From assembly GCA_902461085.1 (NCBI GenBank), contig CABPWH010000001.1, positions 10,520-74,519 of the forward strand: DNA of 64,000 nt. Reading direction: 5' to 3'. Shown here piece by piece: positions 5,326 through 40,125 of this stretch. The number at the start of each line of letters is the position of its first letter. Position 1 is the first letter of the stretch. The DNA is from an uncultured Collinsella sp. Lineage in GTDB: Bacteria > Actinomycetota > Coriobacteriia > Coriobacteriales > Coriobacteriaceae. Both the position numbers and the translations under genes were made by a program. Below the pieces are notes generated by a model. The model worked only from the letters and a program-made list of their open reading frames with translations. It was not told where the DNA came from and did no database searches.

Positions 5326-5344
5326 GGATACCTTTCATAGTCAT

Positions 5345-5384
5345 TGGGGACGTTCTTACATGACCAGTCGTTTAAGAACGTCCC
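5345..5384 (-). other. Intercistronic stem-loop between the S-component and ATPase genes
   Basis: ggggacgttctta-N14-taagaacgtcccc forms a perfect 13-bp stem with no U-tract. It lies just upstream of the ecfA RBS. Confidence 0.5.
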
Positions 5385-5432
5385 CAAAAGCTAGTCGTTT
5401 GGGACAGTCTTTGCTGGTGGGGCAGCGATGAG

Positions 5433-6003: not shown

Positions 6004-6078
6004 ATGGTGAAAATCCTTTCGGAAGGGGAGTGCAAGAGAAAAGCGGAGGCGCGTGATGCGAATGCGATCGGGCTCGAG

Positions 6079-6110
6079 ATAGAAAAAAGGCCCCCGGTCG
6101 AAACCGGAGG
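6079..6110 (-). terminator. Intrinsic terminator / attenuator in the leader of the ECF operon
   Basis: Minus-strand RNA: ggccuccgg-uuucga-ccgggggcc (9-bp stem with one G-U pair) followed by uuuuuucu. Confidence 0.7.
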
Positions 6111-6148
6111 CCTTTCAATCACCTAGAGCGCAAAAACAGGCGTGAGGG

Positions 6149-6217
6149 ACTCACTGTCGACCGATCGTATTCGCATCACGCCACCACCAGTTGTTGAGAG
6201 AGTTCATCGTGTTCTTC
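6149..6217 (-). CDS. Leader peptide ORF, 22 aa, MKNTMNSLNNWWWRDANTIGRQ (three consecutive Trp codons)
   Basis: ATG preceded by a perfect RBS aaggag at a 7-nt spacer. The stop codon lies 38 nt upstream of the terminator stem. TGG TGG TGG at 6179-6187. Confidence 0.5.
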
Positions 6218-13952: not shown

Positions 13953-14099
13953 GGGCGCTTCTTCCTTGCAATGAAACGGAAGCTCAAGCACCGATAACTT
14001 ATATATCAACGCAATAAACCCGAGCGCGAGGGCGTTTGGGTTTATTATTGAAGCGTATGTAACCTGGCGGCGCCACACCGCCTGTTAGTAGGGAGACAC

Positions 14100-15278
14100 A
14101 TGAACGTTCTGGTCGTCAACGCAGGATCTTCGACGCTTAAGTATCAGGTCATCGATACCAAGTCCCACAAGGTGTCCGCAAAGGGCTCCTGCGAGCGCGT
14201 CTGCTTTACCGGCGGTACCTTCACCCACGCTGCCAACGGTTCCAAGAAGGTGACCGAGAACATCGAGTTCCCCGACCACAAGGTCGCCATCGAGGTCGTC
14301 CTGAAGGACCTCGAGGCCAACGGCGTCAAGATCGAGGGCATCGGCCACCGTATCGTTCAGGGCGGTTGGTACTTCGGCGATTCCTCCCTCGTCGACGAGG
14401 ACGTCCTCGCCAAGATCCGCGAGGTCGCTCCGCTCGCCCCGCTGCACAACAACCCCGAGGCCAACGTTATCGAGTACTGCCTGGAGCAGTATCCCGACCT
14501 GCCCAACGTCACGGTCTACGACACTGCTTTCCACTTCAATATGCCCGAGGTCGCCAAGACCTACGCCCTGCCCAAGGACGTCTGCGACAAGCTGCACATC
14601 CGTAAGTACGGCGCCCACGGCACCAGCTACCGTTACATCTCCAAGAAGGTCGCCGAGATGACCAACGGCGAGGCTCGCAAGGTCGTCGTGTGCCATATCG
14701 GCTCCGGTGCTTCCCTGTGCGCCATCGAGGACGGCAAGTGCATGGACACCACCATGGGTCTCACCCCGCTCGACGGCGTCATGATGGGAACTCGCTGCGG
14801 CTCTATCGACCCGGCTACCGTGTGCTACCTGCAGCGCGAGGGTGGCTACACCTTCGACGAGGTCGACGAGATGATGAACAAGAAGTCCGGCCTTTTGGCT
14901 GTGACCGGCGGCAAGACCAACGACTGCCGCAACGTCGAGGAGCTCGCCGCCGCTGGTGACCCCGATGCTCAGCTCGCCTTCGACATGTTTGTCTACAAGA
15001 TTGCCGCTAAGGCAGCCGAGATGGCTACTTCTATGTGCGGTATGGACACCCTGGTCTTTACTGCCGGCATCGGCGAGCACGCTCCGGCTGTCCGCGCTGG
15101 CGTGGCCGACCGTCTGGCCTTTATGGGCGTCAAGATGGATCATGCCCGCAACGCCCTGCGTGGCGACGGCGCTTGGTGCCTGTCTGCCAAGGATTCCAAG
15201 GTCAAGATTTTCGTCATCCCCACGGACGAGGAGTTCATGATCGCCTCCGACGTCGAGCGCATCGTCAACGGCAAGTAA
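14100..15278 (+). CDS. ackA: Acetate/propionate kinase, paralog 1
   Basis: 392 aa, MNVLVVNAGSSTLKYQ..., complete acetokinase signature motifs, RBS gggag. Confidence 0.9.
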   Translation: MNVLVVNAGSSTLKYQVIDTKSHKVSAKGSCERVCFTGGTFTHAANGSKKVTENIEFPDHKVAIEVVLKDLEANGVKIEGIGHRIVQGGWYFGDSSLVDEDVLAKIREVAPLAPLHNNPEANVIEYCLEQYPDLPNVTVYDTAFHFNMPEVAKTYALPKDVCDKLHIRKYGAHGTSYRYISKKVAEMTNGEARKVVVCHIGSGASLCAIEDGKCMDTTMGLTPLDGVMMGTRCGSIDPATVCYLQREGGYTFDEVDEMMNKKSGLLAVTGGKTNDCRNVEELAAAGDPDAQLAFDMFVYKIAAKAAEMATSMCGMDTLVFTAGIGEHAPAVRAGVADRLAFMGVKMDHARNALRGDGAWCLSAKDSKVKIFVIPTDEEFMIASDVERIVNGK

Positions 15279-15442
15279 TTGCAAAAGGGGAGGGGCTGGA
15301 CGACCGAGCGCCGTTCGGCCCCTCTTTTGTGCTCGTTGGGCGATATGCCTGATAGCTATTTATCAAGTTGTGATAACTTCTTATTAAAATGCGGCCGCCT
15401 TAAGGGGTCTGCGTCGACCGTATTGCACTGCAAAGGAGTCTC

Positions 15443-16621
15443 ATGAACGTACTTGTTGTTAACGCCGGCAGCTCAAGCCTCAAATATCAGCTTTTGGATA
15501 CCGATACTCGCGAGGTTTTCGCCAAGGGCAACTGCGAACGTATCGGTTCGGACATGGGCATCTTTGGCCACTCCGAGAACGGTGGCGCCAAGCAGACCGA
15601 GGAGGTCCCCTTCCCGGACCATCGTTCGGCTATCGCGCGTGTGCTCGAGGAGCTCGAGAAGACCGACTTTACGATCGATGGCATCGGCCACCGTATCGTT
15701 CAGGGTGGCTGGCACTTCGATGATTCCGCGGTCGTCGACGACGAGGTCATGGCTAAGATTCTCGAGGTGGCCCCGCTCGCCCCGCTGCACAATTACGGCG
15801 AGGCCGCAGCAATCGAGTATTGCCGCGAGAAGTATCCGGAGCTGCCCAACGTCGCCGTCTTCGATACCTCGTTCCACATGACCATGCCCGAGGTCGCCTA
15901 CACCTACGCGCTGCCCAAGGACGTGTGCGATAAGTACCACGTGCGCAAGTACGGTGCCCACGGCACGAGCCACCGCTATGAGTGGATGATGGCCAAGGAG
16001 ATCCTGGGCTCGCGCTGCCACCGTCTGCTTTCGTGCCATCTGGGCAACGGCGCTTCGCTCGCCGCCATCGAGGACGGCGTGTGCCGCGATACCACGATGG
16101 GCCTCACGCCGCTCGATGGCCTGATGATGGGCACCCGTTGTGGTTCCATCGACCCGGCCACCGTGTGCTACCTGCAGCGCGAGGGCGGCTACAGCTACCA
16201 GGAAGTCGATGACATGATGAACAAGCAGTCTGGTCTGCTTGCCATCTCGGGCATCTCCAACGACGCCCGCGACATCCGCACGCGCGCCTCCGAGGGCGAC
16301 GAGCGCTGCCTGCTCGCCTTCGATATGTTCGCCTATAAGGCCATGCAGCAGGCCGGTTCCATGATCGCTTCCATGGCGGGCGTGGACACCATTACCTTTA
16401 CCGCCGGCATCGGCGAGAACGACTGGTCGATCCGCAAGGCCTTCTGCGACTGCTTTGAGTGGCTGGGCGTGCGCATCGACAACAACAAGAACCGCGAGGC
16501 CGTGGGCAACGGCCCACAGGTCATCAGCGCCGCCGGCTCTTCCGTCACGGTTATGGTCATCCCCACCGACGAGGAATACATGATCGCCCACGACGTCGAG
16601 CGCCTGACCAAGAACAACTAA
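15443..16621 (+). CDS. ackA: Acetate/propionate kinase, paralog 2 (roughly 60-65% identical to paralog 1 by eye)
   Basis: 392 aa, MNVLVVNAGSSSLKYQ..., own RBS aaaggag. An intergenic hairpin and a promoter-like AT-rich stretch separate it from paralog 1. Confidence 0.9.
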   Translation: MNVLVVNAGSSSLKYQLLDTDTREVFAKGNCERIGSDMGIFGHSENGGAKQTEEVPFPDHRSAIARVLEELEKTDFTIDGIGHRIVQGGWHFDDSAVVDDEVMAKILEVAPLAPLHNYGEAAAIEYCREKYPELPNVAVFDTSFHMTMPEVAYTYALPKDVCDKYHVRKYGAHGTSHRYEWMMAKEILGSRCHRLLSCHLGNGASLAAIEDGVCRDTTMGLTPLDGLMMGTRCGSIDPATVCYLQREGGYSYQEVDDMMNKQSGLLAISGISNDARDIRTRASEGDERCLLAFDMFAYKAMQQAGSMIASMAGVDTITFTAGIGENDWSIRKAFCDCFEWLGVRIDNNKNREAVGNGPQVISAAGSSVTVMVIPTDEEYMIAHDVERLTKNN

Positions 16622-16680: not shown

Positions 16681-16828
16681 CTAGCAGGTGGAAATTCCAG
16701 TCCCAAAGTGATCGTCACCAGCAACGCCTGCTCTTTCAGCAACGACACCCATTCGTTCAGGATTCTCAGCCCCAGCTCGTAGCCAAGCCGCCGTCCACTC
16801 CAGATACCCTGATTGCCACGTGGCGGCA

Positions 16829-16955
16829 GGGGCCCTACAGGGTAAAGCTCTGAAAACTTTCCGCAGGACGCATGAAACCCCCGCCGCACGAAGTGCGCAG
16901 CGGGGGTTTCATGCATGTCCGAGGACGTTTTCAGAGCTTTACCCTGTAGGGCCCC
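16829..16955. repeat. Giant nested palindrome P1: 29-bp perfect outer arms, 15-bp perfect inner arms and a 5-bp core hairpin
   Basis: ggggccctacagggtaaagctctgaaaac ... gttttcagagctttaccctgtagggcccc; inner gcatgaaacccccgc/gcgggggtttcatgc; core cgcac-gaa-gtgcg. No U-tract on either strand. It lies 15 bp past the pta stop codon. Confidence 0.8.
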
Positions 16956-18182: not shown

Positions 18183-19385
18183 ATGCAGATTACCTCAGGC
18201 CTGCCTGAAGGCTTTAACGCCGGCGCGTACGACATGATTGTCGTCGGTGCTGGATATGCCGGTGCCGTTTGTGCCCGCCGTCTCGCCGAGACCATCGGCT
18301 ATCGTGTTGCCGTTTTGGAGCGCCGTAGCCACATTGCGGGCAATGCCTATGACTGCACTGACGAGGCCGGAATCCTGATCCACGAGTACGGTCCGCATAT
18401 CTATCACACCTTTAACGAGCGCGTGCACAATTTCCTGTCGCGCTTTACCAAGTGGACGGATTATCAGCACAAGGTGCTCGCCAACATCAACGGTACCCTT
18501 ATGCCCGTGCCCTTCAACCATGCGAGTCTCAAGCTCGCCTTTGGTGACGAGCGCGGCGAGGAGCTGTATCAGAAGCTCGTGGAGACCTTTGGCAAGGATG
18601 TCAAGGTGCCCATTATGGAGCTGCGTAAGAAGAACGACCCCGACTTGGCCGAGGTCGCCGATTACGTCTACGAGAACGTTTTTTTGCATTACACCATGAA
18701 GCAGTGGGGCCAGACGCCCGATCAGATCGATCCCTCGATCACCGGCCGCGTTCCCGTCTTTGTGGGCGATGATGACCGCTACTTCCCGCAAGCCCCCTTC
18801 CAGGGCATGCCGCAGGAGGGCTACACGGCGCTCTTTGAACACATGCTCGACCACGACCTGATCGACGTGTTCTGCGACGTGGACGCCCGCGATCTCTTTG
18901 AGATCGACGAGACCACCGTCAAGATCGACGGCAAGGTCTATGGTGGCGAGATTGTCTATACCGGTCCACTCGACGAGCTGTTCAACCTCGACTTGGGTGC
19001 GTTGCCGTACCGCACGCTCGATATGAAGTTCGAGACGCTCGATATGGACCAGTTCCAGCCCGTGGGCACCGTCAACTACACCACGAGCGAGGACTACACG
19101 CGTATCACCGAGTTCAAGAACATGACCGGTCAGGTCCTGCCCGGCAAGACCACCATCATGAAGGAGTACTCCAAGGCCTATACGCCCGGCTCGGGCGAGA
19201 CGCCGTACTACGCCATTCTTGAGCCCGAGAACCGTGAGCTCTATGAGCGCTATCTTGAGCGCGTCCAGAATCTGACGAACTTCCACCCGGTGGGTCGTCT
19301 GGCAGAGTATCGTTACTACGATATGGACGCTGTGACCAATTCCGCCCTCGATCTTTCGGATGAGATTATCGCCTGCCATGCATAA
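18183..19385 (+). CDS. glf: UDP-galactopyranose mutase
   Basis: 400 aa with an FAD-binding GAGYAG motif, strongly conserved UGM blocks (IHEYGPHIYHT) and RBS aaggag. Confidence 0.85.
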   Translation: MQITSGLPEGFNAGAYDMIVVGAGYAGAVCARRLAETIGYRVAVLERRSHIAGNAYDCTDEAGILIHEYGPHIYHTFNERVHNFLSRFTKWTDYQHKVLANINGTLMPVPFNHASLKLAFGDERGEELYQKLVETFGKDVKVPIMELRKKNDPDLAEVADYVYENVFLHYTMKQWGQTPDQIDPSITGRVPVFVGDDDRYFPQAPFQGMPQEGYTALFEHMLDHDLIDVFCDVDARDLFEIDETTVKIDGKVYGGEIVYTGPLDELFNLDLGALPYRTLDMKFETLDMDQFQPVGTVNYTTSEDYTRITEFKNMTGQVLPGKTTIMKEYSKAYTPGSGETPYYAILEPENRELYERYLERVQNLTNFHPVGRLAEYRYYDMDAVTNSALDLSDEIIACHA

Positions 19386-20409
19386 AGTCATAACATTCGG
19401 TATTCCCTCGTATAACGCCGCCAAGGACATGGACCATTGCATCACCTCCATCTTGGAGGGGAGCAATTACGCCACCGATATCGAGATTATCGTGGTGGAC
19501 GACGGCTCCAAGGACGAGACGGCCGATAAGGCCGATGAGTGGGAGGCGCGTTATCCCGGTATCATTCGCGCGGTACACCAGGAGAACGGCGGCCACGGTA
19601 TTGCCGTCCTTTCGGGTCTGTGCGAGGCACAGGGCACCTACTACAAGGTTGTTGATTCGGACGACTGGCTTGACGGCGCTGCCCTTTCGACCATGCTGTC
19701 GATTCTGCGTGGCTTTGAGGAGCGCGACCAGCGCGTTGACCTGTTTATCTCGAACTACGTGTACGAGAAGGTTTACGAGGGCACGCATACCGCTATTGGC
19801 TACAAATTTGCCCTGCCGCGCAAGAAGATCTTTTCCTGGGATCAGATCGGTCATTTCCGCCTGGACCAGAACCTACTCATGCACAGCCTGTGCTATCGCA
19901 CGGATGTGCTGCGCGAGTCCAACCTTCCCATGCCGCCGTACACGTTCTATGTGGACAACATCTACGCCTACGTGCCGCTGCCGCGTTGCAAGACCATGTA
20001 CTACGCCGACATCGACCTCTACCGCTACTTTATCGGTCGCGAGGGCCAGAGTGTCAACGAGGCCACGATGGTCAAGCGTCTGGACCAGCAGTTCCGTGTG
20101 ACGCGCATCATGATGGAGTCGTACCACCTGTACAGCGATGTTGAGTCGTCGCGTCTGCGCTCGTACATGATGGGCTATTTCACCATGATGATGGCGATCT
20201 GCTCGGTGCTCACCAAGCTTTCCGAGGAGGATTGCGCCGACGAGCGCCTAAAGACGCTGTGGAATGATTTGAAGGCCTACGACGAGCGCATGTATCGTCG
20301 TGCCCGCTACGGCGTGGTCGGCTTCTTCACTAACCTGCGTGGACGGGCCGGGGACAAAACCACACTCGGCCTATACCGTCTTGCCTCAAAGATCTTCAAA
20401 TTCAACTAG
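19378..20409 (+). CDS. Family 2 glycosyltransferase (probable galactofuranosyl transferase partner of glf)
   Basis: GT2 N-terminal Rossmann domain (ITFGIPSYNAAKDMDHCITSIL, VVDDGSKDET, DSDDW). Overlaps the glf stop by 8 nt. Its last 12 codons lie inside palindrome P2. Confidence 0.8.
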   Translation: MHKVITFGIPSYNAAKDMDHCITSILEGSNYATDIEIIVVDDGSKDETADKADEWEARYPGIIRAVHQENGGHGIAVLSGLCEAQGTYYKVVDSDDWLDGAALSTMLSILRGFEERDQRVDLFISNYVYEKVYEGTHTAIGYKFALPRKKIFSWDQIGHFRLDQNLLMHSLCYRTDVLRESNLPMPPYTFYVDNIYAYVPLPRCKTMYYADIDLYRYFIGREGQSVNEATMVKRLDQQFRVTRIMMESYHLYSDVESSRLRSYMMGYFTMMMAICSVLTKLSEEDCADERLKTLWNDLKAYDERMYRRARYGVVGFFTNLRGRAGDKTTLGLYRLASKIFKFN

Positions 20410-20605
20410 CACAGAAGCGCTCGGGTAACGGGGACCCCTGGTCCTTAACTTGCTACTTCGAACAGTCCTGCGCAAGACGGAGGCGCCACTGGCGCCTCCT
20501 TTGCGTGCGGAACTCGTATCAAGTTAAGGACCAGGGGTCCTCTGCTATGTCTCGCTTTGTGTCAGCAAGCTGAATTTGAAGATCTTGGACGCGCGGTACA
20601 CAGGG
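20365..20605. repeat. Giant nested palindrome P2, about 240 bp with three nested tiers
   Basis: Outer imperfect arms with a 17-bp perfect core aagatcttcaaattca (20385-20401 / 20570-20586). Middle 21-bp perfect arms ggacccctggtccttaacttg (20431-20451 / 20519-20539). Core hairpin ggaggcgcc-act-ggcgcctcc (20478-20498). Confidence 0.8.
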
Positions 20606-20633
20606 GCCTGGGCTGAAAGAGATCTTGTTGAGT

Positions 20634-20758
20634 AGGTTGCCCGGTGGGGCTTGGTTATGTTTGTCGCGAGTTCCGCACGAGCCGAAGAGCACTTAATGTG
20701 CTCTTCGTGCGAGCCAGGACTGTAGAGCAGCAAACATAACCAAGCCCCGCCGGGCAAC
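20634..20758. repeat. Giant nested palindrome P3: 29-bp arms with one mismatch plus inner stems
   Basis: ggttgcccggtggggcttggttatgtttg ... caaacataaccaagccccgccgggcaacc; inner gaagagcac-ttaat-gtgctcttc. Shares the 13-mer cgagttccgcacg with P2 in inverted orientation. Ends 14 bp before the S58 peptidase stop. Confidence 0.8.
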
Positions 20759-20771
20759 CGGACGACCTAGT

Positions 20772-21773
20772 TTACTTTGCGGCTCCGGGGACGCCGTGGG
20801 AGGTTTTGGCAGTTTTGGCTCCGTTCACGATGGCGGTTTCCAGGGCCCTTACAGCGAGCATGCCCAGCAGGTCTAGGGGAACGGCGGCGCTTGCTTGGGC
20901 GCCTAGTTTGCCGCTGGCGAGGGTGTAGATGGTGTCGCCGTCGTTGGTGGTGTGCGTGGGACGGATGGCGTGTGCGTAGGCGTCTGCGGCCATCTGGGAG
21001 ACCTTGGTGGCTTGTGCCTTAGTGAGTTCCACGTTGGTGACGATGCAGCTGATGGTGGTGTTGGTGCGGTCGAGCGGCATCTGCATGGATCCGGCGGCGG
21101 CAAAGGCTGCGAGTTCCATGTCGACGATCTGGTCGCTATCGGCTGCGGCGCGCATACCGGCGACCCACTCGCCGGTGAAGGGGTCGACAACGTTGCCGCA
21201 GGCGTTGACCGAGACCACGGCGCCCACCTTGATGGGGCCGAGAGCCAAAGCGGCAGCGCCAAGGCCGGCCTTCATGCAGGTAGCGGGGCCCATGAGCTTA
21301 CCCACGGTAGCGCCCGTGCCGGCGCCTACGTTGCCCTGTTCGAGCTTGGTGGGGGTGTGGTCGAGTGCTTCGCGCACGGCGGCGATGCCGGCCTCAATGT
21401 CGGGGCGAACGGTGGGGTTACCAAAGGCGAGATCGAAGATACAGCTGGAGCACACGATAGGCACCTGCGTGGGGCCGACGGGAAGGCCGATGCCGCGTCT
21501 CTCAAGCTCGCGAGCGACGCCGCTTGCAGCCTCGAGGCCAAAGGCCGATCCACCCGAAAGGCAGACGGCGTGTACCTTGTCGACGGTGTTCTCGGGTCGC
21601 AGCAGGTCGGTTTCGCGCGATGCTGGAGCACCGCCGCGAACGTCAACGCCGCCGGTGGCGCCCTCGGGTGCCACGATTACGGTGCAACCGGTGCCGGCCT
21701 CCTCGTCCGTATAGTTGCCATAGCAAAAGCCATCGACATCGCAGACGTCAATGGCCTCGAGCAGTGTATCCAT
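20772..21773 (-). CDS. P1/S58-family peptidase (DmpA/L-aminopeptidase D-Ala-esterase-like)
   Basis: 333 aa carrying GTGCTVIV and the VRGGAPASRETDLL block typical of DmpA/ArgJ-fold autoproteolytic enzymes. RBS aggag. Confidence 0.75.
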   Translation of the reverse strand: MDTLLEAIDVCDVDGFCYGNYTDEEAGTGCTVIVAPEGATGGVDVRGGAPASRETDLLRPENTVDKVHAVCLSGGSAFGLEAASGVARELERRGIGLPVGPTQVPIVCSSCIFDLAFGNPTVRPDIEAGIAAVREALDHTPTKLEQGNVGAGTGATVGKLMGPATCMKAGLGAAALALGPIKVGAVVSVNACGNVVDPFTGEWVAGMRAAADSDQIVDMELAAFAAAGSMQMPLDRTNTTISCIVTNVELTKAQATKVSQMAADAYAHAIRPTHTTNDGDTIYTLASGKLGAQASAAVPLDLLGMLAVRALETAIVNGAKTAKTSHGVPGAAK

Positions 21774-27416: not shown

Positions 27417-27473
27417 CTAGAGCTGTCAGCAAGCAGCGTCCGCTATGGAAGGGCGCTGAGAGATTCGGCCGAA

Positions 27474-28740
27474 AGGCCCGAAAGAAAGGTAGGAGGCCAT
27501 GACGAAAGGTCTGCACGTGCCTTCCGAGATCGGCAAGCTCAGGAAGGTCTGCCTGCACCGTCCCGGCGACGAGCTCCTCAACCTGCCGCCCGACGAGCTC
27601 GAGCGACTCCTGTTCGACGACGTCCCGTTCCTGGAGGTCGCGCAGCAGGAGCACGACACCTTCGCCCAGATCCTGAGGGACCAGGGCGTGGAGGTCCTCT
27701 ATCTCGAGAACCTCGTCGCCGAGGTGTTCGACCAGGTCCCCGGCGCCCGCGCCGAGTTCACCGACCAGTACATCGCCGAGGCCGGCATCCGCGGCCAGCA
27801 CATGCCGCAGATCGTCCGCGAGAAGCTGGACTCCATCGAGGACAACCTCGAGTTCGTCAAGAAGACCATGGCCGGCATGACCAAGTCCGAGATCGACATG
27901 CCCCTCACGGCGTCCACGACCCTCGACTCCCTGGTCAACTCCGAGTCCGAGTCCGACCTGATCATCGACCCGATGCCCAACCTCTACTTCACCCGCGACC
28001 CGTTCGCGGTCATCGGCGAGGGCGTCAACCTCAACCGCATGTACTCGGTCACCCGCAACCGCGAGACCCTGTACGGCAAGTACATCTTCAAGTACCACCC
28101 CGACTACAAGGACGTCTCGCTGTACTTCCGTCGCGACTGCCAGTTCCACACCGAGGGCGGCGACGTGCTGAACATCAACGAGAAGACCCTCGCCGTCGGC
28201 ATCTCCCAGCGCACCCAGGCCGCCGCGATCGACGTCATGGCCCAGAACATCTTCTGGAACTCCGACTCCAAGGTCGAGCGCATCCTGGCCTTCGACATCC
28301 CGGTCTCGCGCGCCTTCATGCACCTCGACACGGTCTTCACCCAGATCGACGTCGATAAGTTCACGATCCACCCCGCCATCATGGGCACCCTGCGCGTCTA
28401 CGAGCTGACCGCCGGCAAGAACCCGGGCGACGTGAACATCCGCCTGATCGAGGACACCCTCGAGCACGTCCTGGAGGACGCCACCGGCGTCGACCAGGTC
28501 AAGCTGATCCCCTGCGGCGGCGGCGACCCGATCGCGGCCTCCCGCGAGCAGTGGAACGACGGCTCCAACACCCTGTGCGTCGAGCCCGGCAAGATCTGCG
28601 TCTACGCCCGCAACACCGTCACCAACGACGTGCTGTACAAGGAGGGCCTGGACCTTCTCGTCGTGCCCTCCGCCGAGCTCTCCCGCGGCCGCGGCGGCCC
28701 GCGCTGCATGAGCATGCCCTTCTGGCGCGAGGACCTCTAA
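27474..28740 (+). repeat. Direct repeat copy A: RBS plus the full arcA CDS, 100% identical to 30563..31829
   Basis: Identity begins 25 nt upstream of the ATG and ends exactly at the stop codon. All overlapping six-frame ORFs are identical between copies. Confidence 0.9.
27499..28740 (+). CDS. arcA: Arginine deiminase, copy 1
   Basis: 413 aa, MTKGLHVPSEIGKLRKVCLHRPGDEL... with a C-terminal catalytic Cys (GGGPRCMSMP). RBS aggagg. Very high GC3. Confidence 0.9.
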   Translation: MTKGLHVPSEIGKLRKVCLHRPGDELLNLPPDELERLLFDDVPFLEVAQQEHDTFAQILRDQGVEVLYLENLVAEVFDQVPGARAEFTDQYIAEAGIRGQHMPQIVREKLDSIEDNLEFVKKTMAGMTKSEIDMPLTASTTLDSLVNSESESDLIIDPMPNLYFTRDPFAVIGEGVNLNRMYSVTRNRETLYGKYIFKYHPDYKDVSLYFRRDCQFHTEGGDVLNINEKTLAVGISQRTQAAAIDVMAQNIFWNSDSKVERILAFDIPVSRAFMHLDTVFTQIDVDKFTIHPAIMGTLRVYELTAGKNPGDVNIRLIEDTLEHVLEDATGVDQVKLIPCGGGDPIAASREQWNDGSNTLCVEPGKICVYARNTVTNDVLYKEGLDLLVVPSAELSRGRGGPRCMSMPFWREDL

Positions 28741-30506: not shown

Positions 30507-30562
30507 ATGTCGTCAGCAATAACGCCTCACACGGAGGGGCGCTAACGAATCGGCCCTGACAA

Positions 30563-31829
30563 GGGCCCGAAAGAAAGGTAGGAGGCCATGACGAAAGGTC
30601 TGCACGTGCCTTCCGAGATCGGCAAGCTCAGGAAGGTCTGCCTGCACCGTCCCGGCGACGAGCTCCTCAACCTGCCGCCCGACGAGCTCGAGCGACTCCT
30701 GTTCGACGACGTCCCGTTCCTGGAGGTCGCGCAGCAGGAGCACGACACCTTCGCCCAGATCCTGAGGGACCAGGGCGTGGAGGTCCTCTATCTCGAGAAC
30801 CTCGTCGCCGAGGTGTTCGACCAGGTCCCCGGCGCCCGCGCCGAGTTCACCGACCAGTACATCGCCGAGGCCGGCATCCGCGGCCAGCACATGCCGCAGA
30901 TCGTCCGCGAGAAGCTGGACTCCATCGAGGACAACCTCGAGTTCGTCAAGAAGACCATGGCCGGCATGACCAAGTCCGAGATCGACATGCCCCTCACGGC
31001 GTCCACGACCCTCGACTCCCTGGTCAACTCCGAGTCCGAGTCCGACCTGATCATCGACCCGATGCCCAACCTCTACTTCACCCGCGACCCGTTCGCGGTC
31101 ATCGGCGAGGGCGTCAACCTCAACCGCATGTACTCGGTCACCCGCAACCGCGAGACCCTGTACGGCAAGTACATCTTCAAGTACCACCCCGACTACAAGG
31201 ACGTCTCGCTGTACTTCCGTCGCGACTGCCAGTTCCACACCGAGGGCGGCGACGTGCTGAACATCAACGAGAAGACCCTCGCCGTCGGCATCTCCCAGCG
31301 CACCCAGGCCGCCGCGATCGACGTCATGGCCCAGAACATCTTCTGGAACTCCGACTCCAAGGTCGAGCGCATCCTGGCCTTCGACATCCCGGTCTCGCGC
31401 GCCTTCATGCACCTCGACACGGTCTTCACCCAGATCGACGTCGATAAGTTCACGATCCACCCCGCCATCATGGGCACCCTGCGCGTCTACGAGCTGACCG
31501 CCGGCAAGAACCCGGGCGACGTGAACATCCGCCTGATCGAGGACACCCTCGAGCACGTCCTGGAGGACGCCACCGGCGTCGACCAGGTCAAGCTGATCCC
31601 CTGCGGCGGCGGCGACCCGATCGCGGCCTCCCGCGAGCAGTGGAACGACGGCTCCAACACCCTGTGCGTCGAGCCCGGCAAGATCTGCGTCTACGCCCGC
31701 AACACCGTCACCAACGACGTGCTGTACAAGGAGGGCCTGGACCTTCTCGTCGTGCCCTCCGCCGAGCTCTCCCGCGGCCGCGGCGGCCCGCGCTGCATGA
31801 GCATGCCCTTCTGGCGCGAGGACCTCTAA
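30563..31829 (+). repeat. Direct repeat copy B: RBS plus the full arcA CDS, 100% identical to 27474..28740
   Basis: See copy A. The period between copies is 3089 bp. Confidence 0.9.
30588..31829 (+). CDS. arcA: Arginine deiminase, copy 2
   Basis: Protein identical to copy 1. Confidence 0.9.
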   Translation: MTKGLHVPSEIGKLRKVCLHRPGDELLNLPPDELERLLFDDVPFLEVAQQEHDTFAQILRDQGVEVLYLENLVAEVFDQVPGARAEFTDQYIAEAGIRGQHMPQIVREKLDSIEDNLEFVKKTMAGMTKSEIDMPLTASTTLDSLVNSESESDLIIDPMPNLYFTRDPFAVIGEGVNLNRMYSVTRNRETLYGKYIFKYHPDYKDVSLYFRRDCQFHTEGGDVLNINEKTLAVGISQRTQAAAIDVMAQNIFWNSDSKVERILAFDIPVSRAFMHLDTVFTQIDVDKFTIHPAIMGTLRVYELTAGKNPGDVNIRLIEDTLEHVLEDATGVDQVKLIPCGGGDPIAASREQWNDGSNTLCVEPGKICVYARNTVTNDVLYKEGLDLLVVPSAELSRGRGGPRCMSMPFWREDL

Positions 31830-40054: not shown

Positions 40055-40125
40055 GGGACGAGCCCCAGATTGCCACGGCGTGCTTTTGCGCGCGCATGGG
40101 CAATCTGGGGCCCGTCCCATTTTTC
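40055..40125 (+). terminator. Long-stem intrinsic terminator after xerD
   Basis: gggacgagccccagattgcc-N24-ggcaatctggggcccgtccc (20-bp arms, one mismatch) followed by atttttc. Confidence 0.7.

Follow-up and report, generated by a model that had tools for sequence, protein, structure and literature searches.

A 64,000-nt stretch of the genome of an uncultured Collinsella sp. (assembly GCA_902461085.1, contig CABPWH010000001.1, positions 10,520 to 74,519 of the forward strand), referred to here as the window, contains a long nested palindrome, P2, at the 3′ end of a gene for a GT2 glycosyltransferase. The genome belongs to the Collinsella aerofaciens complex. We find that P2 is probably a composite, in which a copy of a dispersed hairpin repeat family stands beside the ancestral coding tail of GT2, an inverted copy of that tail has been added by template switching, and the resulting hairpin acts in the mRNA in the manner of a repetitive extragenic palindromic (REP) sequence.

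Structure of P2 and the coding end of GT2

Inverted-repeat analysis of the window resolved P2 (20368-20605) as one long nested hairpin of three tiers. The core tier, GGAGGCGCC-ACT-GGCGCCTCC (20479-20499), is centred on 20489 and not, as an earlier sequence-only reading had it, on about 20486. The arms of the middle tier (20432-20452 and 20520-20540) pair perfectly over 21 bp, as that reading described, and extend to 25 nt at 96% (20432-20456 and 20516-20540, plus strand). In the outer tier AAGATCTTCAAATTCA (20389-20404) pairs perfectly with TGAATTTGAAGATCTT (20571-20586) over 16 bp, one fewer than first read, within arms of 28 nt at 86% (20383-20410 and 20565-20592). Each arm motif has exactly two matches in the window, one per strand, where 0.02 or 0.00 would be expected. 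The RNA fold of 20360-20610 is a single long hairpin of −131 kcal/mol, while 200 shuffles of the segment give −78 ± 5.5 kcal/mol and none equals the observed value (z = −9.6). The located arms and this fold bear out a nested, three-tiered palindrome of about 240 bp at this place.

An assembler-made fold-back or chimera has a negligible probability of accounting for P2. Many contigs do stop 130-350 nt past the GT2 stop codon, and one metagenome contig (L116) opens with a perfect fold-back, over 100 nt long, that looks suspicious, but the P2 architecture, its allelic variation and intact flanking genes are found inside long contigs of 80 genomes, which include isolates and one closed 2.4-Mb contig. 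P2 is not an assembly artefact, because variants of it occur at 80 Collinsella genome loci that are independent of one another.

The GT2 coding sequence (CDS; 19360-20409, plus strand; Pfam PF00535, 6.9e-22) is preceded by glf (18183-19385), and most of its orthologs start at the equivalent of M7 (position 19378, 343 aa). Its TAG stop codon occupies 20407-20409, just past the perfect 16-mer at 20389-20404. The left outer arm of P2 (20374-20404, plus strand) consists of the last 11 GT2 codons (YRLASKIFKF plus the AA of the final Asn codon), and translation of the Pfam-matched protein supports the earlier statement that this arm encodes the C-terminus, ...LYRLASKIFKFN*.

To find the origin of this tail we turned to GT2 relatives, of which there are thousands, the closest being from Collinsella, and took the best 120 for comparison. 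Every full-length one (~115), down to 67% identity, carries the tail ...LY(R/H)LA(S/G/A)(K/R)I(F/V)KFN, and the Coriobacterium glomerans protein ends in RRIFNFN, giving the combined pattern (K/R)I(F/V)(K/N)FN. At the DNA level, we compared orthologs at growing distance from the window gene (loci L081-L088). The tail is retained without a P2-type palindrome in L081-L086 and L088, with spacers of 30-120 nt among them, and in these outgroups no downstream complement of the tail was found. In C. glomerans 30 nt separate GT2 from a convergent maf gene, Collinsella vaginalis has a 51-nt spacer, Collinsella sp. An2 has a plain U-tract terminator (AAAAAGCGCCACGT...ACGTGGCGCTTTTT), and three more species have unrelated hairpins after GT2. 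The only compared outgroup with a P2 homolog is L087 (87% amino-acid identity), where the complement matches the codons used by that species itself (ATCGAAGATCTTC with GAAGATCTTCGAT). Because orthologs without the palindrome keep the same tail, the LYRLASKIFKFN* ending is by this comparison shown to be ancestral, with no element contributing coding sequence, which makes the downstream arm the derived one of the two.

These data bear directly on the proposal of the sequence-only reading that a palindromic element, perhaps resembling a MITE (miniature inverted-repeat transposable element), inserted into the 3′ end of GT2 and supplied its last 12 codons and stop. The inner tiers are indeed a repeat element and the palindrome takes in the last codons, but the same tail and stop occur in other genera and species without the element, and the element starts past the stop codon, an arrangement shared by 19 other genes. 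We consider the proposal very improbable; the supply of C-terminal codons by an element is refuted by the orthologs that have the residues and lack the palindrome. What survives of it is that a dispersed MITE- or REP-like repeat makes up the two inner tiers, located after the stop codon and not within the gene.

The right outer arm (20571-20598, plus strand) repeats the GT2 3′ end in inverted and diverged form (TGAATTTGAAGATCTTGGACGCGCGGTA), perfect over the 16-mer at 20571-20586 and missing one codon equivalent. Read on the minus strand it is TACCG-CGCGTCCAAGATCTTCAAATTCAGC, compared with TACCGTCTTGCCTCAAAGATCTTCAAATTCAAC in the CDS, so that it matches 31 nt of the CDS save for a 3-nt gap. 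Its minus-strand peptide, YRASKIFKFSL, aligns as YR-ASKIFKFS with YRLASKIFKFN. The copy is placed symmetrically about the centre of P2 (85-100 nt to the left, 82-97 nt to the right). By alignment, the right outer arm is thus shown to be a derived, mirror-placed inverted copy of the last 11 GT2 codons. The minus-strand open reading frames (ORFs) over it (20545-20757 and 20519-20692) have no Pfam match and negative codon-usage scores (−12.4 and −2.5, compared with +136 for GT2), and for these reasons we agree with the earlier view that antisense ORFs here are artefacts, produced by the palindrome.

A dispersed hairpin repeat family in Collinsella

The inner tiers of P2 recur elsewhere. Positions 20410-20570 (plus strand), directly after the GT2 stop codon, are shown to be one sense-oriented copy of a dispersed hairpin repeat family, and a neighbouring hairpin, P3 (20635-20759, minus strand; 29-nt arms at 97%), to be a second. 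In the P2 element an asymmetric conserved core, ACAGTCCTG...GTGCGGAACT (20462-20514, plus strand), holds the apical hairpin, followed by TTTGCG; the middle-tier arms enclose the core, and the outer stem segments (20410-20431 and 20541-20570) are locus-specific. P3 is in the sense orientation for the peptidase family S58 gene convergent to GT2 (20772-21773, minus strand; Pfam PF03576, 1.2e-32), and its core (20669-20723, minus strand; apical hairpin 20683-20707) begins 48 nt past the TAA stop of that gene. Inside P2, most alleles have a module of ~75 nt that matches the P3 interior, taken in reverse complement, at 86% identity, so the same module is present in the transcript orientation of both convergent genes.

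We scanned metagenome contigs with the pattern ACAGTCCTG-N(10-40)-GTGCGGAAC; all family counts given here are among the matches listed. The scan yielded at least 120 full-size copies, 150-230 nt in length, from at least 41-42 flanking-sequence clusters (at least 40 contexts) in human-gut contigs. All copies listed share an asymmetric core of ~55 nt, consisting of ACAGTCCTG, a short stem, an apical GC-rich hairpin (usually NNNNNCAC-ATTAA-GTGNNNNN, the loop usually CACATTAAGTG) and then GTGCGGAACT. The short stem beside the core comes in three covarying versions (CGCAAGAC/TTTGCG, CTCGCAC/GGCTCG and CTCACGAC/TGTTCG). The arms are 30-65 nt long, GC-rich distally and AT-rich beside the core, and their sequence is private to each locus yet complementary, each arm motif being found only at its own locus. 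On 49 diverse copies the hairpin model is paired in 85% of cells, compared with 70.5% for shuffles and ~40% for slid partners, and 24 of 33 pairs have changed on both sides; none of 500 shuffles reaches the observed value. A solitary apical hairpin motif (GAAGGCCAC-GTTAT/ATTAA-GTGGC...) was also observed ~100 nt downstream of the element in three contigs (L099, L118, L126), without the rest of the core, so the apical hairpin may also occur on its own.

A covariance model built from family copies, R1, was scanned over the window. It scores P2 at 85.2 bits (E 1e-23, 20439-20536) and P3 at 96 bits (E 6e-27). The opposite-strand matches to P2 and P3 reach ~30 bits, and a further long hairpin by the pta stop codon, P1 (16829-16955, minus strand; 59-nt arms at 83%), reaches 27 bits (E ~1e-5, the minus strand scoring above the plus strand); nothing else in the window exceeds 16 bits. 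Judging by CTCGGACA...TGCGGAAAG, P1 may be a distant relative of the family. A 248-nt block comprising 124 nt of unique sequence and the P1 hairpin (16705-16952) is absent from 11 related Collinsella loci (e.g. L026, L200), where the empty site joins ...GGAAATTCCTGTCCC directly to GAGGGGATATGTCC... with a 3-nt CCC microhomology. Within 6 kb either side of GT2 in 44 loci we found no further or polymorphic copies.

Family copies are strongly biased in position and orientation. Genes around them were called by a codon-usage finder trained on the window, which replaced an unreliable orientation heuristic based on third-position G+C. There is a same-strand upstream gene at 59 copies, and the distance from its stop codon to the core is mostly 43-66 nt (43-100 nt overall at abutting sense copies; 52 nt for GT2, 48 nt for the S58 gene). 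Counted as distinct genes, 19 abut a copy in the sense orientation and 2 in the antisense orientation (p = 2e-4). In 29 of 33 cases no more than 15 nt separate the stop codon from the hairpin base, by a stem-extension estimate that over-calls. Eight of the ten upstream ORFs tested are Pfam genes ending at that stop (GatB, sulfatase, ValRS, NrdD, DUF711, TsaD, mannose-6-phosphate isomerase and CoaE). A bias in stop-codon identity at the copies (TAG 27, TAA 16, TGA 0) was marginal, since TGA ends only ~15% of Collinsella genes, and was dropped. TGA is a rare stop codon in these Collinsella sequences, both in the window (TAG 24, TAA 24, TGA 4) and in the metagenome contigs (L090-L209; TAA 280, TAG 273, TGA 98), which is unusual for a ~60% G+C genome.

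The window has no Rfam 15 match at gathering thresholds, and at E values up to 5 only chance-level matches to miRNA and sRNA models. The literature on palindromic repeats, hairpins, terminators and MITEs of Collinsella and Coriobacteriia yielded no description of the family. A human-microbiome RNA screen reports Collinsella candidate motifs (PMC8040213), and these may overlap with the hairpin family; the core strings have no match in those of its supplementary files that were searched. With no Rfam match and no paper found, the family appears to be previously undescribed. A phage origin was rejected, as 2.9 million viral contigs contain one context (2 contigs) and the other 11 pattern matches are due to chance.

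Palindrome variation and the origin of the mirror arm

The 80 closest genome loci (L001-L080) provide an allele series for P2. Among them the GT2 protein is 98-99% identical, while the intergenic sequences form five allele groups that differ greatly. Four loci have lost the apical hairpin between GCTCG repeats (L004, L014, L044, L045), P3 is removed between ATTAC/GTTAC repeats in two (L011, L059), and the P2 loop is inverted in one (L058). In three loci (L007, L015, L073) the centre of P2 has been rewritten to a perfect palindrome, GCTACTGCG...CGCAGTAGC, and L017 has paired double substitutions among near-identical strains; these and the L058 inversion are clustered multi-base changes that raise complementarity in close relatives. 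Between allele groups, 7-8 pairs of the middle tier have changed on both sides. These changes are signatures of slipped-strand and template-switch replication errors; errors of the latter kind are documented to build hairpin stems, and to mend them, in one event (PMC8794818, PMC5453318). About 20 of the 80 assemblies have contig ends inside the P2 or P3 palindromes, 130-350 nt past the GT2 stop.

The arms of P3 likewise differ wholly between strains at the same site (GGTTGCCCGGTGGGGCTTGGTTATGTTTG in the window, 20635-20759; GTCGGTCGGAGGCGGGCGGGCATTACGTTTG in L002, 7250-7400). Both versions are perfectly self-complementary around the same core, and no source copy of either arm type was found at other loci.

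The simplest and most likely origin of the outer tier of P2 is a template switch, because the locus bears the template-switch and slippage signatures that are documented to build stems. At the foot of the element, such a switch would have copied the adjoining CDS end in reverse complement and so extended the quasipalindrome, an event that we infer rather than reconstruct on a tree. What is observed is a reverse-complement copy of the neighbouring CDS, mirror-placed at an existing inverted repeat and absent from the outgroups, with a second case, a complement of 14 nt, at the family copy of L178. The same DNA-level process would keep the arms complementary and yield the deletions, re-palindromisations and loop inversion seen among strains. 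As in described template-switch and quasipalindrome mutations, an inverted copy of adjoining sequence lies mirror-placed at the foot of an existing hairpin, and there are multi-base changes that restore pairing, a loop inversion and deletions between short direct repeats (PMC8794818, PMC5453318). GT2 differs from those cases in that the presumed template is coding sequence under purifying selection and the product is a mimic of the C-terminus within the 3′ untranslated region (UTR).

Alternatively, point mutations selected for pairing with the CDS end may have produced the downstream arm, as a structured 3′ UTR that begins inside the gene, a possibility also raised by the sequence-only reading. 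Among 59 alleles the right outer arm hardly varies. It is 96.4% identical in a comparison of the window with L002, compared with 68.8% for the P2 interior and 76.6% for the spacer plus P3 (GT2, 98.0%; S58 gene, 90.5%), and this contrast between a 96% conserved mirror arm and adjoining non-coding sequence at 69% gives the idea partial support. The complement also follows local codon choice in L087 and strain L063, where it fits the Ser codon found there (CGA opposite TCG); the arm may be tracking the CDS or may have kept an ancestral state. A 16-nt perfect match with homology continuing across a codon-sized gap, and encoding the same peptide, looks like duplication, however, and the outer tier shows no covariation, being invariant in 58 of 59 alleles. 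The sense strand has no folding advantage, and only ~2 of ~25 family contexts pair with the CDS. Taken with these points, stepwise evolution of a selected duplex has a low probability, and a template switch remains our preferred origin for the arm.

Pairing with coding sequence is specific to the GT2 locus and is not a family trait. The longest CDS complement is 15-16 nt at GT2, 14 nt in L178 and 10 nt in L154, and other contexts have 4-8 nt, equal to mismatched controls. CDS overlap as a general trait was rejected on these values, as only GT2, L178 and perhaps L154 exceed the controls; the looser stem-extension estimate, which over-calls, was not used for this question.

Possible roles of the hairpin and its relation to known elements

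The orientation and stop-codon biases of the family argue for a role in the transcript. In the mRNA, P2 would form a very stable, REP-like hairpin in the 3′ UTR, beside the stop codon, that would block 3′ exonucleases or help to end transcription between the convergent genes, or both. At GT2, where the stem includes the stop and the last codons, the terminating ribosome would have to melt it, which could damp or couple GT2 expression. By analogy with REP sequences we regard some RNA-level role, for example in mRNA 3′-end stability, transcription termination or translation termination, as tentative, with the chances slightly under even.

The nearest functional analogy for the family is the REP sequence of E. 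coli, which stabilises or protects upstream mRNA. Like the REP, BIME and REPIN elements of Proteobacteria, the Collinsella repeats are dispersed extragenic hairpins with mosaic structure, located at gene 3′ ends and often between convergent genes, with many copies within ~15 nt of a stop codon. In E. coli, REPs no more than 15 nt from the stop codon are reported to stall ribosomes and lower expression (cited in PMC12306157). As expected of REPs, the family has many extragenic copies enriched at gene 3′ ends (at least 120 copies in at least 40 contexts; 19 genes). It is not a short palindrome with conserved arms, however: REPs are 20-40 nt long with conserved arms and a variable spacer, whereas the Collinsella elements are 150-230 nt long with a conserved centre of ~55 nt and long, copy-specific arms. 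A GTAG tetranucleotide appears not to be conserved across the Collinsella subtypes (GCTAC...GTAGC or GTATC occurs only in the P2-type subfamily, and the commonest subtype has GCTGCTC...CGCGAC), and the host is an actinobacterium (Coriobacteriia).

Several observations weigh against the composite reading and its RNA-level part. The gene calls come from a home-made codon model, with ten checked by Pfam, and about one third of contexts are not beside a sense-strand stop codon. Stems of 66 distinct copies show no sense-strand wobble bias (G.T 104, A.C 91), and in 48 of 58 P2 alleles the minus strand gives a slightly more stable fold than the sense strand; given no strand asymmetry, the make-up of the stems does not support RNA-level selection. 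The core hairpin has no proper U-tract (at most UUU, and none in many subtypes), and a canonical U-tract terminator comes after at least one family copy, so the family cannot simply be equated with the terminator. The right outer arm could owe its conservation to gene conversion templated by the constrained CDS arm and not to selection.

Like intrinsic terminators, the core is a GC-rich stem-loop just past the stop codon, in transcript orientation and between convergent genes, and the GT2-S58 intergenic region has no other terminator-like site. Unlike intrinsic terminators, the family has no immediate U-tract of 5 or more (TTTGCG follows the core hairpin at P2, GGCTCG or TGTTCG in other subtypes), and stems of more than 40 bp enclose the hairpin. 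A consensus terminator scan found no plus-strand site in 20000-21200. The terminators compared include U-tract-poor actinobacterial ones and sequence-conserved motifs such as the mycobacterial TRIT.

It is possible, although we think it unlikely, that the family is a selfish or neutral REP- or MITE-like palindrome with no host role, its arms kept complementary only by hairpin-templated repair and the CDS-complementary arm of P2 a neutral by-product, whose similarity is upheld by gene conversion from the constrained coding arm. The absence of sense-strand wobble bias, the frequent palindrome instability together with assembly breaks at P2 and P3, the wholly different P3 arms between strains and the rarity of CDS overlap all fit such an element, as does a 189-nt copy that is present or absent beside a segment resembling an insertion sequence (IS), with a 94.7% identical copy 2 kb away. 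A neutral element would not be expected to show a 19:2 sense bias and a tight stop-to-core distance (mostly 43-66 nt), however, and the conserved part is the asymmetric core and not the termini. At one polymorphic site, filled in L173 and empty in L147, there is no target-site duplication (ttggca-E-ttcc compared with ttggca-GGTT-ttct, where E is the element; no direct repeat), and no transposase partner was identified (RAYT genes were not looked for).

Bacterial MITEs (Correia/NEMIS, ERIC, RUP, BOX) resemble the family in being non-coding, dispersed, 100-250 bp long and bounded by inverted repeats, in forming long hairpins in transcripts and in presence/absence polymorphism. They differ from it in their shared terminal inverted repeats: in the Collinsella family arm sequences and termini differ between copies, and only the segments adjoining the core are related. 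No parent IS with matching ends is known for the family, and MITEs do not usually show so strong a bias in orientation and in position relative to stop codons. In L107, L147 (8360-10540) and L173, the 189-nt copy E lies beside the 1.86-kb IS-like segment, which has terminal inverted repeats of ~28 bp (TGCCAAATAGGGACAGGTTTATTTTGGT) unrelated to the family ends. With X and R as the flanks, the locus is found as X-E-R, X-E-IS-R (a clean empty site for the second E) and X-E-IS-E-R, and the two E copies are 94.7% identical.

A more far-reaching interpretation, which we put forward only as a speculation and consider doubtful, is that the repeats are an undescribed class of orientation-specific, stop-abutting elements whose core (ACAGUCCUG, hairpin, GUGCGGAACU) is the recognition site of a host factor, whose hypervariable, self-complementary arms are kept by hairpin-templated repair, and whose stem at GT2, having captured the last 11 codons, is a translation-coupled switch. 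If so, candidates for the core-recognising factor would be an RNase, a termination factor or a ribosome-associated factor. Ribosome arrival at the GT2 stop and folding of the 3′ hairpin would be mutually exclusive, and the switch would act on mRNA decay, termination or protein output in the cell-wall galactofuranose operon.

The window has further repeats and hairpins. Tandem acetate kinase genes (14052-15278 and 15404-16621) are ~78-81% identical at the DNA level, and a canonical U-tract terminator (AAAGGCCTCCAGAGC...GCTCCGGAGGCCTTTTT) lies after the second, so the genome has ordinary terminators besides the long hairpins. A direct repeat of at least 300 nt (27472-27771 and 30561-30860, 3089 nt apart) is 100% identical with diverged upstream leaders (27372, 30460), and looks like a recent tandem gene duplication. 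Other strong intergenic hairpins (40055-40118, 6051-6181 and 5344-5387; arms of 21-29 nt at 83-95%) have no sequence relation to the family (R1 scores of at most 16 bits).

What lasts from this analysis is a new repeat family of Collinsella, with an unusual architecture of conserved asymmetric centre and hypervariable, compensated arms, placed in one orientation by stop codons. The GT2 locus shows clearly, in nature, how a palindrome has grown into coding DNA, and its dozens of close strains offer a rare natural series of palindrome mutations, from extension into coding DNA and compensated changes to inversion and deletions. For annotation, R1 is a ready-made tool, the more useful as these hairpins break or distort short-read assemblies and yield spurious antisense ORFs, and the GT2-S58 intergenic alleles are possible strain markers. 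Collinsella aerofaciens is among the commonest human-gut actinobacteria, and to our knowledge almost nothing has been reported on its non-coding genome. Dispersed, backed by covariation and placed in one orientation by the stop codons of housekeeping genes (GatB, ValRS, NrdD, TsaD, CoaE, glf-GT2 and others), the family points to post-transcriptional regulation or 3′-end processing.

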